DNA of 64,000 nt, taken from the NCBI GenBank assembly GCA_000004695.1, contig CM000154.2, forward strand, positions 128,001 to 192,000, given 5' to 3'. This document shows, piece after piece, positions 9,312 through 25,588 of the stretch; within the stretch, counting starts at the first letter, position 1, and every line of letters begins with the position of its first letter. A program made the position numbers and the translations under genes. The notes below the pieces were generated by a model. The model was not told where the DNA came from. It was given only the letters and a program-made list of their open reading frames with translations, and ran no database searches. The DNA is from Dictyostelium discoideum (lineage: Eukaryota).

Positions 9312-12300
9312 ATGAGGAGCGAAGCACAAGTTCCTCCAGCACAAAAAGTTTATTATGAAGAACTTTTTCAAATTGCTGATGTGGACAAAGATGGAGTAAT
9401 TGGTTTAAACGATGCATCATTTTTTAGAAATTCAATGTTATCAAATGATATTTTAAGAGATGTAATTACTTTTTTTTAATTTATAATAATAAATAAGTAA
9501 ATAAAAAAAAATAAAAAAAACAAACCAATAGTTTTACTAAATTTTTTTTATTATTATTTTATTCATTAATAATTTTAGATTTGGCAATTATCAGATGTGA
9601 ATAATGGATATTTAAATATTGACGATTTTTTTGTAGCATTAAAATTAGTTTCATTGGCACAAATGGGAGCACCAGTTACTTTGGATAGTATTAAATTAAT
9701 ACCAGTTATTCCACCACCAAAATTAAATGATATTCCCCCATTAAAAAATGATGTAGGTTTTAATTCAAAAAAAAAAAAAAAAAAAAAAAAAAACCATTTA
9801 TAAACACTCATATTTCTAATAATAACATAATAATAATAATAATAATAATAATTAATAAAAGTGGATAATAAGTAATGGTGAAAAACAAAATTATATAGAT
9901 TTATTTAATAAATATGATGAGGATGGTGATGGATTTATTTTAGGATCACAAGCTAAAACTATATTTGGTACAAGTGGATTGCCAACAAAAATGTTGAGCC
10001 ATATTTGGAATTTATCAGATGTTAGTAAGGATCAAAAATTGGATTGTCAAGAGTTTATAATGGCAACATTTCTCATTAGATCAGTATTAAAAGGTTATGA
10101 ACTACCAAATAAATTACCAGAATCATTGATTACATCTTCACATTATATTAGTTCGGCTGGTGTACCATCACCAAAGATTCCAGAATGGTTAATACCACCA
10201 CCCGAGAGAATAATATATGAAGATTTATTCAATAAGAACCAACAGGGAGGTATATTCACAGGTTCTCAAGCAAAAGTTCTCTTTGAGAAATCTGGTCTCT
10301 CCAATCAAGATTTGAAATTGATTTGGGATTTAGCTGACCACAATCAAGAACAAGTTTTAGATAAACATAAATTTGTAATTGCAATGTTTTTAATCTCTCA
10401 AAGAAAAAAAGGTAAAGAATTACCTCAATCACTTCCTCAACTATTATTAGAATCTTCAAAGAGTACATTCAATCCTTCTTCAATAACTTCACCACCACCA
10501 CAATCTTCACCACAATCTTCTCAACTACAACAACAACCACCACAACAGCAACAACAAACTGGTGATTCAAAATATAATATAAATTTAAATGATTTAGTTT
10601 CAAATACCACACCAATTGGCCAACCAAATATACAACCAACTACTACTACTACTACAACACCTGCAACTGCTTCAGGTGGCTTGAATGTTAGTGGTTTACT
10701 TTCACCACCACCTCAACAGCAATCACCTTCAATTGTAGGTACACCACCTTCTACTATAACAAGAGAAGGATCATTTACATTTGATAATAGTGGTGGTGGT
10801 AATAATTTATTAGCAAAACCACCAAGAAGTAATAGTATTACACGTATGAATTCATTCCAACATCAATTACCACAACAACAACAACAACAAGTTTCACCAC
10901 AATCGACCATTTCAAATACTAGTATTGGTAGTGGTAGTAGTAGTTTCTTATCAACTAATGCTACAACATCATCACCACCACCAATACCATCAACATCTTC
11001 ACAACCAACTTCATCAAATAATAGTTCTATAACTAGTAATAATAACAATCCAATTAGTCCAACATCCACCAATATTACTCAATTATTTGAAAACATTGAA
11101 AAAGTTAAACAACAAGTATTTGAACAAGAGAGAATTAGACAAGAGGAAATTCAAGTTAAATTGAACCAAGAATTACAATTGGAAGCAGAGTTAAAACAAC
11201 AACTCGCACAAGAACAACAACAATTAGATGAGGTTAGGGAAAATGTAAAAGAAGAGGAAATCAAACTATCCTCTATTAAAGCTGATAATCAATCATTGAA
11301 AGAACAAATTTCAACCGCTAGAGTCGATATTAAATCATTAAAATCACAGTTGGAACAACAATCATCACTACTCAGAGAAAAGAGTGAATTGTTTGACGAA
11401 CAAAATGAAGCACTCTCACACTTGAATGATGATCTTAAAGAAAAACAACAAGAGTTACAAAAGAATAAACAACAAATCGAACAATTATTGTCATCAATTG
11501 AATCGATTAAACAAAATCGTACCGATGTAAAGAATCAAATTTCAACTGTAACCAAACAATTGAATGACTCTAAATTAGAATTAAAACAATTAGCTGAGGA
11601 ACAAAAACAACAAAAACAAAAATTAGCAGAAGAACAAAAACAATTACAACAATTACAACAACAACAACAACAACAAGCAACTTCAAAATCTTTAACCTCT
11701 GTTAAATCTGATGATAATATAACTTTCCTTAGTGGTATTAATACAAATACCACCTCTACAAACACAGCAACTTCAATTCCAACTGCAAGTGTAAGTGGAA
11801 ATGATAATTGGGACTTTTTTAATTCACCACCAGTTAAATCATCATCATCCTTACCAACTTCACCATTTGATGATGATAAAACTTTTGTACCAACATTTAC
11901 AACTACCACCACCACAACTAATAATAATAATAATAATAACACTATAAATACTAGTAATGGTAATTTAACATTTACATCACCAGTTAAATCAACTGTTAAT
12001 CAATTGAAATCATCAAATTCATCAGTTGGTGGAACAGGTGGTAGTGTTTCAACTAGAAAATTAAGTGGTGCAAGTGTCAGTAGTAACAATAGTTTCAATG
12101 ATAATACTAGTATAGATACATTAAATAATCATTTTGGTTCCGATCAATTTTCATTCAACTCATTTGGAAGTAATAATTTAACAGCACCACCAACAACCTC
12201 ATCTTCAACAAATAAAGTTCAATCAGATTTCTTTGGTGTCGGTGGAGGAAATAAAGATCCATTTGGTGGTGATTCAAATAATAATCCATTTGGTGAGGAA

Positions 12301-12604
12301 AGTACATCATCAATTAGGGATGGTGGTTCTGAAACTTTATCAGAAGCTCATACTCTCTTTGATAAAGATCCACTTTTTGAAACAAATGATGCATTTCAAT
12401 CCAGTAAAGATCCATTTGGTCAAATTTTATTCTCAAACTTTACAAAAGATTCATTTGGTGGTGAAAGTGTATCAAACAATAGTAATAATAGTAGTATAAT
12501 TTCTTCAAATACAATACCTTCATCAAATTTTACTTTTAATACAAATTCAACAACAACCAATAATCGCCAATCACCAATTGATTCTGATTTATTTAGTGAC
12601 AATC

Positions 12605-12672
<68 letters not shown>

Positions 12673-13128
12673 CCAACTCAGTCAAATCAAAATAATCAAA
12701 GTTTTACAAGTAATGATTCTTTTGATGATTTCCAAACTACACCAACACCAACCAATAACAACAACAACACTACAACAACAGAGTTTGGTGTAAAGTTTAG
12801 TGATACAACTTTTGGTGATAGTTCAAATGGTGATTTTGATTTTGGAAGTAATGTATTTGGTCAACCAAGTGCAAATGATCCATTTTCATCATCAATTGAA
12901 CCTCAACATCAACCTGATACAAACAATGTATCCTCTGATCCATTTAAAGGTGGTTTTGATGATTTTGGAAGTGCACCATTCTCTTTTGATAATAAATTCA
13001 ATGAAGTAGTTGGCGATGATTCACCATCATTAACAACAGCAACAACAACAACAACAAATGATAATGATAATGGCACTTTTGTTTTTAATGACAATAATAA
13101 TAATACACCTTCACCATTTGATTCTTAA
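9312..13128 (+). CDS. Eps15-like endocytic adaptor with three EH domains, a coiled coil, poly-Q and C-terminal DPF/NPF motifs; about 1196 aa, 3 exons
   Basis: Exons approximately 9312..9461, 9579..9752 and 9862..13128 (donors GTAATT and GTAGGT; acceptors ttttag and aaaag). EH domain 1 is YYEELFQIADVDKDGVIGLNDASFF...IWQLSDVNNGYLNIDDFFVALKLV. EH domain 2 is YIDLFNKYDEDGDGFILGSQAKTIF...IWNLSDVSKDQKLDCQEFIMATFLI. EH domain 3 is YEDLFNKNQQGGIFTGSQAKVLF...IWDLADHNQEQVLDKHKFVIAMFLI. A central coiled coil is rich in E, K and Q. The C-terminus carries DPFGG, DPFSS, DPFKG and NPFGEE motifs, which bind AP-2 and EH domains. Confidence 0.75.
12604..12672 (+). repeat. (CAA)n microsatellite encoding about 23 Gln inside the Eps15-like CDS
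   Basis: Uninterrupted CAA repeats; in-frame poly-Q. Confidence 0.9.
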
Positions 13129-13256: not shown

Positions 13257-15280
13257 TTAAAGACCAATATAATATGATCTACCACCAACATTTTGAATTG
13301 GAGTAATTGTTGGTGATAATAAACACCATTCATACCAAACTTTACTCTTTGAAACATTTCTCCAAAATGCACATTTAGCTTTTATATTATTATTATTATT
13401 ATTATTTAAATTTCCATTTGAGAAATAAACTGGTTGTTTTAATGGGAAATAAATTGGAAACCAACTAAACATACCAGTTGAAAAATTACTTGGATTAATA
13501 CTTATATGAACATCTTTATATAGACAACAATCGAAATAACCAATGAAACCATGACAAGTGGTTGATGGAATTGTTAATTCAAATTCTAATGATTCATATC
13601 TAGAGTTATCAATGATTTCATCTCTATTTGGATGTGAGAATGTAAATAATGGTTTTGATTCTGCTAATTGATGGAAATTATGAGGTTTAACAACGTATGG
13701 TGTTTCTGAATGTTTTAAATCACCATAGGCAGTAACTTCATTAAAAAGTTTTGATGAACTAATTGGTGCAATATAAGAGGTATACCAAGTTGGAATACTA
13801 ATACCTGTATCTTTTTTTAAATATCTTTGTGCTCCATCTAAACATTCTGGACTTAATTCATTATCACCAAATGATCCTAATAATTCACTAACCATAATAT
13901 CTGCTCTATATTCTGTATTCCAATCTCTCATATCACTATCAATAACTGTAACAATTTCTTCCCATCCTTCCATTATAATTCTATTTCTTAATCTATTTAT
14001 TTAAAAAGAAATAATGATTAGATAATTTAATTTTTTTTTTTTTTTTTTTTTTTTTTTCAGTTTTTATTTAATATAGTAAATACTTACGTAACGATAGCGT
14101 TTGGATTTTTTTCAACAGCAAAAACTTTAACAAATTTATTAGCTTCAATTGAAGCTTGAATTGAAGAATTTACTAAAGGACCTCTACCAGCACCAACTAC
14201 CATAATAATGATTGGATCATCTTTTGAATCTTTTTTATCCAAATCCAATAAAGCCAATCTAACAGCATTTTGATATTGTTTATATTTGATTGGATCTTTT
14301 TCAAAGACTTCATAAGTTTGTGATTCTAAATTATCCATTAATGGTTGAAGTGGTGCTTGAAGGAAATCTAAATATGGCATTTCAAAGTATTCCTCTTGAG
14401 TTAATGGATTTTGATTTGTATGTAAAAATTTCAAATAGGTTTTGTAGTCTTTTAAAGTATCCATAGATGCACCACTAACAACAAATTGAATATTATAGTT
14501 GAATAGCTGTAAAAGAAATTGTTGATGTGCTTTTGATAATGTTGGAAAACCCGCTTTATTAGTTAAGAAAACTGATGTTGGTATAATTACACATTTCACT
14601 GGTTCACCTAACCATTGTTGTAATTGTTCTTTTGATGGTAAATCTGATGTCATCTCTAAAACTGCTGATAAATTTGGATGTTGATTACAAAGTAATCTAA
14701 AATTGTTCCACCATTCCCATGGATTATCATTATCAACTAAATTATTACCACTACCACCACTAGTATTATGATCTTGATAATAATCAAATTTATTCAATAA
14801 TTGTGATTTTGGTGAAACTAATGGTATTCTAATCCAAACTTTCATATAGGAAAGTGATTGGAGTGATTGATTTACAACTTGTGCATAATTTGTACTATTG
14901 AATGATGGTGTTGGTAAGAGAATTGATGGTAATGATAAATGTGCTGCCCATGATATCTCTTGTTTTAATGTTTTAACACTATTACTACGAATTGTTGGAT
15001 CAATTGAATCTAAATCTATACCATTGGTACTGGTTTTACCAACGATTGATGATCTCCAATAATTTGATTGTAATAATGTATCTGATCTTGTAAATGCTAC
15101 TTTGTTACTAAAACTATTACCAATTGATGCTTTGGTAAAATCACGATTAAATCTTGGATGTGAAATTGAGGTCATTATAAATTGATATTCCAAATCATAT
15201 GCACGCTCGATATCAAGTTGAATATCAACCGATTCTAATTCAACCCCACATGAAAATTCATATTGTGCACTATTTATCAT
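13257..15280 (-). CDS. prmt5: Protein arginine N-methyltransferase 5 (PRMT5/Skb1/JBP1 ortholog), about 642 aa, 2 exons
   Basis: Exons complement(14088..15280) and complement(13257..about 13992). The donor is GTAAGT at 14087. The acceptor is one of three in-frame AG sites at 13993, 13987 or 13981; the first gives the conserved TL of ...NAVVTLENW. The sequence is collinear with human PRMT5 throughout: [151 protein letters not shown]. Confidence 0.88.
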
Positions 15281-16010: not shown

Positions 16011-16606
16011 TGTAATTGTTATAGTGTTTGATAAAATTTAAAAATAAAAATTTAAACTGTTTTTTTATAAAATTTAAAAAATGAAAAAAAAAAAAAAAAA
16101 AAAAAAAAATTTAAAAAATTTAATCCAGTCGTTTCAAGAAAAAATGGAGAAAGATAGATGATGTGGATTATTGTCCTTTAAAAAATATTTTCTTTGAATT
16201 GTCGAATAATTTTAAATAAAAATTTGTCATCAAAAAAAATAAAAAAAAAATAAAAAAAACAAAATAATTATTATCAATTATTTAAAAATATAATATTAAA
16301 ATATAACATTTTTTTTTTTTTTTTTTTTCAATCAAAATTATGATTTTCCGTTAACCAATCAATTTCATTCGAAATTTAATTATTTGGACAAATTGATTAA
16401 GTTGGCAATTACTTTAAATGTTTCAATATTTAATTTGGACTTTACTAAAATAAAAAAAAGATTCCACTTTCAAAAAAAAATTAAAAATTAAAAATTAAAA
16501 ATTAAAAATTAAAATAAAATATATATAATTAAAACAATACCCCTTTTAAATTATTTTTTCAAACAAAACCCACACACTAATTACAACAATAGATTCATCG
16601 AAAAAG

Positions 16607-16645
<39 letters not shown>

Positions 16646-16714: not shown

Positions 16715-18939
16715 ATGACAATAGTTAGATCAATAGCAAATTCACAAATAATTTCAACACTAAGTAATCATAGTAATAAATTAGTATTAAATACATTTTT
16801 ACCACTATGCTATGGTTATAAAAAAAATTATTATTACCAAAATGCTAAAAAGTACTATTCAACCACCAATACAAATACACAATTTGTGAATGAAGAGGTA
16901 CCTGTTATTTATCTATTTATTTAATAATAATTTTATTATTATTTATTAACTTTTTATTTTATTTTATTTTATTTCATCTTATAAAGTTTAATAAAGCTAG
17001 AAAAATGATTGCAAAAGATTTACATAAGAAAACATTAGCATCAATGGAGAAAGCATATGGTATAATGACAGAATATGATAGAACTACATATAATAAATCA
17101 CCATTAGCATCATCATTAGGATCATTTAAAGATAGTATTGATCAATTAAAGGATAACTCATTTTTATTGGTAGTTGTTGGAGAATTCAATAGTGGTAAAT
17201 CATCATTTTTAAATGCATTATTAGGTGATAGATATTTGAAAGAAGGTATAACACCAACAACTCATAGAATCAATAGAATTGAATTTGGTGAAACGATATC
17301 ACAACATACGATTCCATCAAGATTAAGCAATACAGAACATGAAATCATTCAATTACCAGTGGAATGGTTAAAAGAGTTTTCATTAGTAGATACACCAGGT
17401 ACAAACGCAGTGATTGAAGGTCATCAAGAGATCACTGAACATTTCATACCAAAGAGTGATTTAGTATTATTTGTAACTTCAATCGATCGTGCATTCAGTG
17501 AAAGTGAAAAAATATTCTTAGAAAAAGTTAAAAAATGGGGTAAAAAGATCGTAGTAATCATTTCAAAGACTGATCTCATTGAAAATAATCCACTCTCTTC
17601 GAATGCACAATCTGAATTAAATGAAGTCATTAATTTTGTAAAAGATAATTTTAAATCACAATTAAATGTTGAACCAATGATTTTCCCATTAAGTTCAAAA
17701 TTAGCATTAAAAGCAAAATTAGAATTATCTTCATCAATTAATAATTTAAATAATAATTTAAATAATAATAATAATTCATCAAATATAAATTATAATAATT
17801 TACTATCATCAACATCAGTTGAACCAAATAATATCAATAATAATAATAAATATACACAAAAGTTTTATCAAGAATTAGAAAATAATATTAATTGGAAAAA
17901 GAGTAAATTTTTAGATTTAGAGAAATATATTTTACAATCATTGGATAGTAATGAACGTGTGAAATTAAAATTATTAAATCCATTGGGTGTTGCAGATAAA
18001 TTGTATTCAGAATTTGATGAAGAATATCGTTCTCAACAAAGTGTTTTAGATTTTGATTTTGAAAATATTAATTTAGCCGTGGCACAAATTAATGAACATC
18101 AAATCGATTTGAATAAGGATTTACGTCACCAATTGGAAAGAATTGATACTATACTCTTGAGAATGGAGAATAGAGCCAATACATTTTTAGATAATGAAAT
18201 TCAGTTTAGTAATCTTTTGAAATTGTTAAGAGGTGAAGAAATTAGAAACCAATTTGAAAAACACGTTATCGATGGCACCAATCAAGAGATTGAACAATTG
18301 GTTAGAAATTTAGTTGATAACATTGTCGATAAGAATACGAAAAGATGGAAATCGATCATTGATTTAATCAATCAGAAATCATCAAATAAATCTCAAAAAG
18401 TGGTTGGTTTCATTAGAGACACTCATGACTCTAGTGATTTCTCTTCGAATAGACAACAAACTATAAATGATATGGGTGAAAGAACCACTAAAACTTTATC
18501 ATCCTATGATAGAGATAACGAATCTTTATTGGTTAGTCGAGATATTAAAAATGCAATCTATCAAGCGATTCTATTCGAAGCTGGTACCGTTGGTGTTGCA
18601 ACCATCCTTTCAACAGCATTCTTTGATTTAACTGGTGTTTTAGGTATTGGTGCTTTAGCCATCACTGGTTTAGCTTGGGTACCATTTAAAAAAGCTCAAT
18701 TAAAACGTTCCATCTCTTCAAAGATTACAAATCTTCGTCTTCAATTACATGATACCATTCAAGATCATATTGGTGAAGAAATTAGGATTAGTTCAAATAA
18801 AATTCAATTAGGTATTCAACCTTATATCGATTTTACAAATAATGAAAGTAAAAAAATTAATGATTTATCAATTAAATTAGGTGAATGTAAAGATGAAAGA
18901 CAAACTTTAATTTATGATATTGAAAAATATTTTAAATAA
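16715..18939 (+). CDS. Dynamin-superfamily large GTPase (mitofusin/Fzo- or BDLP-like) with a C-terminal transmembrane hairpin; possible mitochondrial presequence exon
   Basis: The main exon 17005..18939 (644 aa) has G1 VVGEFNSGKSSFLNALLG, G3 DTPGT, G4 ISKTD, a long helical middle region, and two adjacent hydrophobic segments near the C-terminus (AGTVGVATILSTAFFDLTGVLGIGALAITGLAWVPF). A candidate 5' exon 16715..16897 encodes MTIVRSIANSQIISTLSNHSNKLVLNTFLPLCYGYKK..., which looks like a mitochondrial presequence. It joins in frame through a GTACCT donor and a ttataaag acceptor at 16986 (89-nt intron). The upstream-exon model is tentative. Confidence 0.6.
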
Positions 18940-19099
18940 ATAAATAATAAATAACAATAACAATAACAATAACAATAACAATAACAAAAACAATAACAAT
19001 AAATAAATATATATATATAATGTATAAATAAAATAATGAATAATTATTTATTTTTTTATTATTTTTTATTATTTATTTATTTATTAATTAATTTACTAT

Positions 19100-19337
19100 T
19101 TACATAAAATCATCATCATCAAAATCATCATAGTTTTGTAATTCATTTCCCATGTGAATCTTTTTTGGTGCAACCTTTGTTTTTGTTTTATTACCACCTT
19201 TACCAGATTTTTCATTCTTTAATTTTTCATTAATTAAAACTGTTAAAGTTTTTGAAATATCATTCATATCTGATGATGATACATTAACTAAAACTTTTTT
19301 CATTAATGATTTAAAGAAAGTAGCATAATGAATTGAT

Positions 19338-19368
<31 letters not shown>

Positions 19369-19856
19369 CAAAAAATAATAATTAGTACATATAATCATAA
19401 ATCTTTTTTTTTTAAAAAAAAAATTAATATATTAAATATTTAATATTTACATCATATTTTAATAAATAATCAGAAACGATTTGAGAATATTGTTCAAAAT
19501 CTTTTTCAGTTTTTGGAATAAAAGTTGAAATTGGTTCACCTGATGATGATTCTTTAACGGATAAACCAGAGAATAAATTTTTACTGTTTTCTAAATCAGA
19601 TGCTTCTTGTAATTCTTTCTTTCTTTTCTCTTCTAAATAAATATCAAAGTCACCTTGTGGTTCTTTTAATTCTTTTTCTTTTAATTCAATTGCTCTTTGC
19701 AATGCTTGTTTCTTTGTTAATTGTTTAACAACTGGTTTTGGTGGTTCTTTAATTTCTTCTTCAACTTTTTCTACTTCATCTTCTGATGATGCATCCCATG
19801 CATCAACTTCTTCAACTTCTCTATTTTCATTAATCCATTTATCTTTTTGAAGGTCA

Positions 19857-19890
<34 letters not shown>

Positions 19891-20019
19891 AATATTTATT
19901 AATAATCAAATCTTTTTTTTTTTTTTAAAAAGAAATAATAAATAATAATAAAAAAAAAAAAAAAAAATAGAAAAAAAAAAAAAAAACTATTTTTGTCATA
20001 ACTTACTCCAATCTGACAT
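19100..20019 (-). CDS. eif3J: Eukaryotic translation initiation factor 3 subunit J (eIF3j), about 219 aa, 3 exons including a 13-nt first exon
   Basis: Exons complement(20007..20019) ATGTCAGATTGGA with a GTAAGT donor, complement(19451..19857) and complement(19100..19339). The product is MSDWSDLQKDKWINENREVEEVDAWDASSEDE...KKQALQRAIELKEKELKE...LEEKRKKELQEASDLENSKNLFSGL...SSIHYATFFKSLMKKVLVNVSSSDMNDISKTLTVL...NYDDFDDDDFM. It is collinear with human EIF3J: N-terminal acidic W motifs, a central ...KRLEEPEE.LTPEEQLADKLRLKKLQEESDLELAKETFG stretch, and the C-terminal ...ITNSLTVL...YEDFM. Confidence 0.78.
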
Positions 20020-20728: not shown

Positions 20729-21720
20729 TTAGTTAAAAATGAAATAACCAATGAAACCTGATAAAATACTTGTACAAAGACAAGATAAGAAATTGACTTG
20801 ATGATTATCTAAAATATTTGCGCCACTGATATGTTTGGTTTTTTCATTTGGTAATAATTTATCAACATTATTTATAACCACTTTTCTATCGATTGAAAAC
20901 AATGAGAGTTGTAATGTTGAACCCATTAATGAATCAATTAATGATCCTAATAAACCAGAGATAGTTGATAATAACAATATTGATATTATTTGTTGTTGTT
21001 GATGATAGAATGGTAAATTGAAAAAGTAACTTGATATATAAAACATTAAACCAATGAAAAAACCACCTGCAATACTCGCACCAATACCTAAAGGACTAAG
21101 TCCACCATTTGTACCTTTTGGTACTTTTTTAAAAGTTGTTATTAAAATTGGTTCACCCTTGCTTAGTATACCCAATTCACTTGCCCATGTATCGCCATTA
21201 CAACATGAATAATGTCTATTTTTATTTTTATTTTTATTTTTATTAAAAATTAATATTTTATTATTATTATAGTTTTTTATTTTATTTTTTTTTTATTTTT
21301 TTTTTATTTATTTATTTACCCTATAAAACAACATATAATAAAACTTGAAAAGAAGTCATTATTAAAATTAATTAAAGTATTTGAACTTTTTGAAAAGAAA
21401 TAAAAGATAGCAGCAAAAATTGTACCAGGTAAACTATTGGATAATACTTGTATATAATTTCTTTGACCACCTGCTGTATGACCATCTTCTATAGTTTTCT
21501 TTATTGATGATTTATATTTTGTAAGATAAGAAGATGAAAAATAAAATGATAATAATAAAGTTGCAAATGTTGATCCAAATATACAAGTTGATACACCAGT
21601 TAGCCATGCTGTTATTGTTCCTGATTGATTCAATGATTTCTTTCTATATCCATGAATTGCAAATAAAGTCACTATACCAATAATAGTTGGTAATTTATTC
21701 ATTAGTTCATTAGAACTCAT
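20729..21720 (-). CDS. TMEM19/DUF92-family integral membrane protein, about 295 aa, 2 exons
   Basis: Exons complement(21320..21720) and complement(20729..21215). The donor is GTAAAT and the acceptor aaaatag. Splicing creates the DUF92 signature ...CCNGDTWASELG (the CCxGDTxASExG motif). There are multiple TM helices and a Gly-rich segment GTNGGLSPLGIGASIAGGFFIG. Confidence 0.6.

Positions 21721-22446: not shown

Positions 22447-25588
<3,142 letters not shown>

Follow-up and report, generated by a model that had tools for sequence, protein, structure and literature searches.

The gene DDB_G0287331 of Dictyostelium discoideum raises the question of what kind of membrane GTPase this amoeba makes that combines a dynamin-type G domain with a hydrophobic hairpin near its C terminus and a presequence-like N terminus, and of the membrane, and the face of that membrane, on which such a protein would act. 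The gene lies on the forward strand at positions 16715–18939 of the DNA analyzed here, a stretch of 64,000 nucleotides (nt) hereafter called the window (GenBank assembly GCA_000004695.1, contig CM000154.2, positions 128,001–192,000 of the forward strand, with position 1 as its first letter). It is already annotated, was flagged in one review, and is functionally unstudied. A first-pass annotation of the window, made from the letters alone, had proposed that the gene encodes an organelle GTPase of mitofusin-like or bacterial dynamin-like architecture, preceded by an exon that resembles a mitochondrial targeting sequence (MTS). As described below, the body of the protein aligns end to end with a family of bacterial dynamin-like proteins (DLPs), the eukaryotic members carry a basic N-terminal extension, and the protein would probably face the mitochondrial matrix; DDB_G0287331 is a candidate for the Dictyostelium mitochondrial fusion/branching machinery.

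Gene structure of DDB_G0287331

Two open reading frames (ORFs) occupy 16715–18939 on the + strand, a short one from 16715 and one of 644 amino acids (aa) from 17005. Splicing of 16715–16897 to 16987–18939 keeps the frame and yields a product of 711 aa, which is identical (100% identity over 100% of the length) to the "hypothetical protein DDB_G0287331" of D. discoideum AX4, so that both the coordinates and the 16897/16987 junction proposed in the first-pass annotation were right. Exon 1 comprises 61 codons, with an in-frame TAA two codons 5′ of the ATG, and exon 2 closes with TAA. In the D. purpureum ortholog, an 85-nt phase-0 intron splits the coding sequence at the same boundary between codons (..IVNED↓FKTKK.. 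compared with ..FVNEE↓FNKARK.. in D. discoideum), which backs the exon junction independently of the D. discoideum gene model. Intron position varies across dictyostelids: the Tieghemostelium lacteum gene has no intron (L082 1001–3145), and the Cavenderia fasciculata gene (L083 1001–3218) has a single 82-nt intron at codon 641, 3′ of the hairpin. The coincidence of exon 1 with the presequence-like region therefore characterizes the D. discoideum/D. purpureum lineage and does not reflect an ancient module. The features of the gene, with the evidence for each, are as follows.

16715–16897, + strand: exon 1, aa 1–61 (5′ in-frame stop; spliced product is DDB_G0287331)
16715–16858, + strand: presequence-like peptide, aa 1–48, ending KYY↓S at a putative R-3-type processing site (composition; low predicted local distance difference test score, pLDDT; homolog motifs)
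16898–16986, + strand: intron of 89 nt, GT..AG, phase 0, 10% GC (counterpart intron in D. purpureum)
16987–18939, + strand: exon 2, aa 62–711 and TAA stop (ORF and splicing)
17161–17718, + strand: dynamin-type GTPase domain, aa 120–305 (Pfam Dynamin_N, 86.7 bits)
17179–17202, + strand: P-loop GEFNSGKS (G1 motif)
17389–17400, + strand: DTPG (G3 motif)
17563–17574, + strand: SKTD (G4 motif)
17746–17868, + strand: Asn-rich low-complexity insertion, aa 315–355 (alignment gap in bacteria, low pLDDT, repeats)
17842–18564, + strand: predicted helical bundle region, aa 347–587, counterpart of the neck and trunk of BDLP and mitofusins (AlphaFold2 model, structural matches)
18565–18693, + strand: hydrophobic hairpin, aa 588–630 (hydropathy, family-wide alignment)
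18694–18936, + strand: predicted C-terminal long helix, aa 631–711 (AlphaFold2 model; putative packing)

Domain architecture and fold class

When the 711-aa protein was searched against Pfam, Dynamin_N matched at 86.7 bits (gathering cut-off 27). The G motifs are intact (GEFNSGKS for G1, TPTT, DTPG for G3, and SKTD for G4), and their key residues show no variation across 60 aligned homologs, an alignment with 76 invariant columns. DDB_G0287331 is therefore a member of the dynamin superfamily. Dynamin_M, GED, and Fzo_mitofusin gave no match at E ≤ 1 in the same search. The protein does not belong to the classical dynamin or dynamin-related protein (DRP) class, which is defined by a Dynamin_M stalk and a GED and includes dynamin, Drp1, Mgm1/Opa1, and MidX.

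Kyte-Doolittle analysis revealed one hydrophobic stretch (aa 584–630), made up of two segments of ~19 aa with a peak value of 1.73. A hydrophobic block of ~45–50 aa is present at the equivalent position, followed by a tail of ~82 aa, in 120 of the 120 homologs listed. The D-x-T-G turn between the two segments is conserved in the family-wide alignment, and the hairpin residues D608, G611, G597, G622, and P627 are invariant among the 60 aligned sequences. The second segment is followed by a basic flank (PFKKAQLKR in D. discoideum; 5–8 Lys/Arg family-wide), which, together with the hairpin, agrees with the positive-inside rule if the two ends lie on the matrix or cytoplasmic side.

An AlphaFold2 model built from the alignment (mean pLDDT 74, predicted template modeling score 0.63) has disordered residues 1–55, N-terminal helices at 55–116, the G domain at 120–305, long helices at 347–566 with a pLDDT of 80–93, a hairpin at 591–621 of low confidence, and a confidently modeled C-terminal helix at 618–710. 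Between the G domain and the bundle lies the Asn-rich insertion (aa 315–355), which is encoded by AAT-type tandem repeats, corresponds to a gap in at least 90% of bacterial homologs, and has a pLDDT below 50 at aa 333–344. The good superposition of the model on truncated Fzo1 suggests that the C-terminal helix packs back on the N-terminal helices to form a G-proximal bundle, and such packing would put the two hairpin ends on one side of the membrane.

In a Foldseek search of the PDB with this model, the best match was BDLP of Nostoc (2j69; 8.7e-17), followed by SynDLP, the Campylobacter DLP pair, IniA, and LeoA. Mfn1, Mfn2, and Fzo1 ranked below these bacterial DLPs at ~1e-10, and classical dynamins ranked lower still; in both fold searches, Drp1, dynamin, and Mgm1 fell below BDLP and the mitofusins. 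Sequence searching of the PDB gave IniA at 6.7e-7 and BDLP at 8e-7 as the top matches, compared with E = 0.004 for Mfn1 and E = 0.14 for Mfn2. By its modeled fold, DDB_G0287331 belongs to the BDLP/mitofusin structural class, with helices flanking the G domain, a second bundle, a hydrophobic tip, and a C-terminal helix that would return to the G-proximal bundle. The dynamin superfamily assignment and the two adjacent C-terminal hydrophobic segments described in the first-pass annotation are thus borne out. Its mitofusin/BDLP label holds at the level of architecture in both fold searches but fails for the mitofusin family at the level of sequence, and the Pfam check that it proposed returned Dynamin_N without Fzo_mitofusin.

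Full-length relatives in Chloroflexota and other bacteria

Thousands of bacterial proteins align full-length to DDB_G0287331, with 31–39% identity over aa ~103–708 and E values of 1e-100 to 1e-134; among them, "dynamin family proteins" of Caldilineaceae share 36–39% identity over ~85% of the query (E ~1e-124). Relatives were found in at least 586 bacterial species in a scan of one genome per species. The best 80 of these species are nearly all Chloroflexota (Caldilineaceae, Anaerolineae, and Ktedonobacteria), the remainder of the 80 being a few Acidobacteriota, Gemmatimonadales, and Bacteroidota. An exhaustive HMMER search of 50%-identity representatives returned 446 clusters at E ≤ 1e-30 and 2,701 clusters at E ≤ 1e-10. 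The alignment runs through the G domain, the bundles, the D-x-TG hairpin, and the ~82-aa tail, and on this evidence we regard the body of DDB_G0287331 (aa ~58–711) as the full-length counterpart of a single-gene, Chloroflexota-type bacterial DLP family. The family is unnamed, and its entries are annotated "dynamin family protein." At both bacterial loci examined, the gene stands by itself: its neighbors are unrelated genes that differ between the loci, and no paired second DLP is present; the flanking genes (isochorismatase, 2H phosphodiesterase, transglutaminases, IclR, and an AMP-binding enzyme) offer no functional clue.

A basic N-terminal extension in the eukaryotic homologs

In the bacterial homologs, a conserved helix (MQRVLTAEQ..LLRRER...) opens the protein, ~56 residues ahead of the P-loop. 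Relative to them, D. discoideum has an extension of aa 1–57, a near-exact match to exon 1, and the P-loop, which starts at about residue 57 in bacteria, starts at 114–171 in the full-length proteins of Amoebozoa and no earlier than 87 in the other eukaryote-like representatives. The D. discoideum peptide is rich in Asn, Thr, Tyr, Ser, and Lys and is modeled as disordered (pLDDT ~31). Its first 59 residues contain 6 Lys plus Arg and no Asp or Glu, and the chance of this absence of acidic residues is 1.7e-4, given that Asp and Glu make up 13.7% of the remaining sequence.

A basic N-terminal extension with few or no acidic residues is present in every eukaryotic homolog inspected and absent from the bacterial homologs; it is encoded also in the transcript-derived homologs of Physarum, Filamoeba, and Clastostelium and in the intronless Tieghemostelium gene. 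Many eukaryotic extensions look classical (MLxxRR..., R-x-F/Y↓S), and in many orthologs the extension ends in R/K-x-(Y/F/L/M) followed by S/T, namely KYY↓S in Dictyostelium, RSF↓T in D. purpureum, RNY↓S in Physarum, RVM↓S in Filamoeba, RQF↓S in Planoprotostelium, and RRL↓S in the homolog P0117. These ends appear to resemble the R-3 motif of the matrix processing peptidase. Judged by composition, the extension of DDB_G0287331 is a putative mitochondrial presequence.

Proposed topology and the alternatives to it

We consider it fairly probable that DDB_G0287331 is a bacterial-type DLP with a mitochondrial presequence that is anchored in the inner membrane, acts from the matrix side, and reshapes that membrane. 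The extension would direct import through the inner membrane and would be cleaved, probably near KYY↓S49. The inner-membrane anchor would then be the hairpin (aa 588–630), leaving the G domain, the helical bundles, and the C-terminal helix on the matrix side, an orientation that would be that of the protein's cytoplasm-facing bacterial ancestor. GTP-dependent dimerization of the G domains and rearrangement of the bundles, as in BDLP and the mitofusins, could in turn bring about tethering or remodeling of the inner membrane, as fusion, branching, or crista shaping. A presequence of the cleavable type argues against a cytosol-facing placement in the outer membrane and favors import and a matrix-facing placement in the inner membrane. 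The organelle GTPase proposed in the first-pass annotation would thus probably be one, but the membrane face that a mitofusin-like protein would occupy is probably the wrong one.

The precedent for such a placement is TbMfnL of Trypanosoma brucei (Tb927.7.2410), with a 41-aa MTS that is cleaved off, a G domain, and, close to the C terminus, two transmembrane (TM) segments for which a loop is predicted (Morel et al., bioRxiv 10.1101/2023.06.28.546890). It is an integral protein of the inner membrane that is protected in mitoplasts and so faces the matrix, and when it is overexpressed, branching of the mitochondria increases in a manner that depends on the catalytic Lys (10.1101/2023.06.28.546890). 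MfnL homologs were reported from many Diphoda and from bacteria, mainly the Planctomycetes-Verrucomicrobia-Chlamydiae (PVC) group and Proteobacteria, the bacterial ones without an MTS (10.1101/2023.06.28.546890). Within Opimoda they were reported only from Acanthamoeba and Dracoamoeba (read as horizontal gene transfer, HGT) and Gefionella, with no mention of Dictyostelium, and MfnL was reported absent from animals, fungi, and land plants (10.1101/2023.06.28.546890). Judging the MTS from composition and TbMfnL from its published description, DDB_G0287331 has the MfnL architecture: an N-terminal MTS-like region, a G domain with G1–G4, two adjacent C-proximal TM segments, and a C-terminal helix.

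Several points weigh against a matrix-side, inner-membrane role. The upstream exon is real and resembles a targeting peptide in its lack of acidic residues, but it is not the Arg-rich sequence that the first-pass annotation had described, since the D. discoideum peptide contains one Arg only. The helical hydrophobic moment of the D. discoideum N terminus, calculated as a test for an amphipathic helix, is not above that of shuffled sequences. TbMfnL is the best analogue and functional model that we have for DDB_G0287331, and the likeness between the two is architectural and known from description. The bacterial relatives of TbMfnL are, according to its authors, mainly PVC and Proteobacteria, whereas those of DDB_G0287331 are mainly Chloroflexota and Acidobacteriota; further, in Amoebozoa MfnL was reported only from Acanthamoeba and Dracoamoeba, whereas the family of DDB_G0287331 is widespread there. 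Indirect signs point both ways as to whether DDB_G0287331 belongs to the MfnL family or to a parallel family of the same design. Finally, a 2021 review listed the gene, by BLAST, as "similar to Fzo-1, function unknown."

The label in that review, like that of the first-pass annotation, agrees with the alternative that survives best, namely that DDB_G0287331 is a true mitofusin/Fzo1 counterpart, anchored by its hairpin in the outer membrane with a cytosolic G domain and acting in outer-membrane fusion. We regard this as unlikely. Fzo1 and the mitofusins share the Fzo_mitofusin (HR2) domain, for which DDB_G0287331 gave no match, and its similarity to them in sequence is marginal, with E = 0.004 for Mfn1 against ~1e-124 for bacterial DLPs; because of the missing match and the far closer bacterial homologs, we do not place the protein in the mitofusin family. 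Mfn1, Mfn2, and Fzo1 are described in the literature as cytosol-facing proteins of the outer membrane that have no presequence, whereas all eukaryotic homologs inspected here have the basic, acid-poor extension that the bacterial ones lack. As the authors of the TbMfnL study also argued, an outer-membrane hairpin protein would not be expected to carry a presequence (10.1101/2023.06.28.546890).

It is also improbable, in our view, that the protein is a remodeling or repair DLP of a non-mitochondrial membrane (endoplasmic reticulum, contractile vacuole, endolysosomal, or plasma membrane), comparable with bacterial DynA or IniA, in which the extension would be a linker or regulatory tail. The single Arg and the unremarkable hydrophobic moment would suit such a role, the hairpin alone could direct membrane insertion, and the structural matches include bacterial relatives such as IniA. 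Against this stand the basic, acid-poor extensions found across independent eukaryotic lineages, many of them classical-looking, the lack of any Asp or Glu in 59 residues of the Dictyostelium extension, and the mitochondrial location of TbMfnL, the one experimentally studied protein of the same architecture.

That exon 1 is an artifact of gene prediction, with translation starting at the ATG at 17005 (M68) to give a protein of 644 aa and no targeting peptide, is very improbable: a single long ORF does begin at 17005 and the 5′ splice site reads GTACCT, which is not the commonest Dictyostelium donor, but splicing is in frame and yields the annotated protein, D. purpureum shares the ..VNE(E/D)↓ codons and the position of the intron, the conserved N-terminal helix of the bacterial proteins begins upstream of the position aligned with M68, and extensions are present in the intronless Tieghemostelium gene and in the transcript-derived Physarum, Filamoeba, and Clastostelium proteins.

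Distribution in eukaryotes and phylogeny

Amoebozoan members of the family were found in Dictyostelia, Synstelium, Physarum, Filamoeba, Clastostelium, Planoprotostelium, Vermistella, and Balamuthia, and heterolobosean members in Naegleria lovaniensis and the pathogen N. fowleri (P0150/P0405). Cyanophora, Galdieria, one MMETSP protist, marine metagenome eukaryotes, and a Syssomonas transcriptome entry complete the named members. The Balamuthia mandrillaris homolog (P0498) carries the NCBI name "Mitofusin-2," yet its nearest relatives are Chloroflexota DLPs (47–48% identity). The Syssomonas entry (P0176; EukProt EP00128, Syssomonas multiformis) is a full-length member with a presequence-like N terminus and is filed under a holozoan; it may be an opisthokont member of a family reported absent from opisthokonts, unless it reflects contamination of the transcriptome, and it had no close eukaryotic relatives in the database searched. 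Searches seeded with P0176 and with P0146, from a marine eukaryote, gave mainly Chloroflexota, and names of kinetoplastids, haptophytes, or stramenopiles were absent; nor were there kinetoplastid sequences among the homologs returned for the DDB_G0287331, P0176, and P0146 queries.

Physarum, Filamoeba, and Balamuthia proteins are 47–48% identical to Caldilineaceae proteins, and these values, with Caldilineaceae as the top matches, suggested a recent HGT from that group. A neighbor-joining (NJ) tree of 143 sequences, all 50%-identity representatives, gave no resolution (19% support for an amoebozoan clade). In a ScoreDist/NJ tree of 37 taxa (572 columns, 200 bootstraps), which contained no PVC or proteobacterial sequences, the eukaryotes stood apart from the sampled bacteria with 96% support, the amoebozoan sequences were monophyletic with 82.5% support, and the amoebozoan proteins did not nest inside Chloroflexota, as a recent transfer would have it. 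This tree favors a single old acquisition by eukaryotes rather than repeated recent transfers out of Chloroflexota, a result that is provisional because long-branch attraction in NJ and limited bacterial sampling could yield the same grouping. Pairwise identities of the eukaryotic lineages are 36–48% to Caldilineaceae but 28–41% to most other eukaryotic members. This pattern is star-like and suggests that the bacterial sequences evolve slowly and that the eukaryotic ones have diverged fast and independently; it makes the taxonomy of best hits misleading for this family.

The occurrence in Amoebozoa, Naegleria, the glaucophyte and red-algal lineages, and marine protists allows a broader and more tentative interpretation, in which these proteins form an ancient pan-eukaryotic family of bacterial-type, matrix-facing inner-membrane DLPs, orthologous or sister to MfnL, that predates the Opimoda/Diphoda split, was lost in most opisthokonts, and supplies the missing fusion/branching GTPase in Dictyostelium. 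We hold this to be possible but rather doubtful. In opisthokonts, Opa1/Mgm1 act from the intermembrane space.

Genomic setting

The window has ~17–31% GC when scored in 2-kb windows, with poly-A/T tracts and Asn-rich coding repeats. Around DDB_G0287331 lie the following genes.

9979–13128, + strand: EH-domain protein
13257–13973 and 14084–15280, − strand: PRMT5, two ORF pieces
19100–19303 and 19424–19909, − strand: eIF3 subunit J (eIF3j), two ORF pieces
20729–21720, − strand: DUF92/TMEM19-like protein
22447–25588, + strand: TAF5-like NTD2+WD40 protein

These are ordinary housekeeping nuclear genes, which indicates that DDB_G0287331 is a normal chromosomal gene and not bacterial contamination; the division of the PRMT5 and eIF3j ORFs into pieces implies short introns. 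Upstream of the start codon of DDB_G0287331 are an (AAAAATT)x5.6 repeat (16476–16514) and a 43-nt poly(A) tract (16601–16643), and an (AATAAC)x8.8 microsatellite (18950–19002) lies directly 3′ of its stop codon. Flanking repeats of this kind are typical of Dictyostelium intergenic DNA.

Comparison with known systems

BDLP of Nostoc punctiforme, SynDLP, Campylobacter DLP1/2, IniA, and LeoA share the fold class predicted for DDB_G0287331, with a G domain, neck and trunk bundles, and a membrane-inserting tip. Their identity to it in structural alignments is 12–19%, and DDB_G0287331 differs from them by its eukaryotic N-terminal extension. They are also set apart from its much closer bacterial subfamily of ~580-aa, single-gene proteins.

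The chloroplast Fzo-like protein of plants, FZL, is a bacterial-type DLP related to cyanobacterial BDLP that combines an organelle-targeting peptide with two TM segments and acts on an internal organelle membrane from the stromal side, the equivalent of the matrix. By description, DDB_G0287331 would embody the same concept, the difference being that FZL goes to a different organelle.

MidX, which we had first suspected, was rejected as an identity for DDB_G0287331. It is a classical DRP related to Mgm1, with a bundle signaling element and stalk, that is shared with giant viruses; it is predicted to be mitochondrial and to act within the matrix, and Amoebozoa are one of several groups that have it (Sheikh et al. 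2023, PMC10280142). Nowhere does the MidX paper refer to Dictyostelium. Both proteins belong to the dynamin superfamily, but DDB_G0287331 differs in its BDLP-type architecture and in having no viral relatives, none being found in a scan of the viral contigs of IMG/VR, giant-virus and others.

In Dictyostelium, mitochondria undergo balanced fission and fusion about once a minute, and neither of the classical DRPs DymA and DymB is needed for this. The 2021 review lists no mitofusin-shaped GTPase for this organism other than DDB_G0287331, and our literature search found no other paper that names the gene. Should the protein, like TbMfnL, work from the matrix side, it would provide a model, in a free-living organism with tractable genetics, for a recently described mode of mitochondrial remodeling, and the architecture would be widespread in Amoebozoa, compared with the two amoebae, read as HGT, in the TbMfnL study. 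Such a spread would bear on whether a machine of this kind was present in early eukaryotes.

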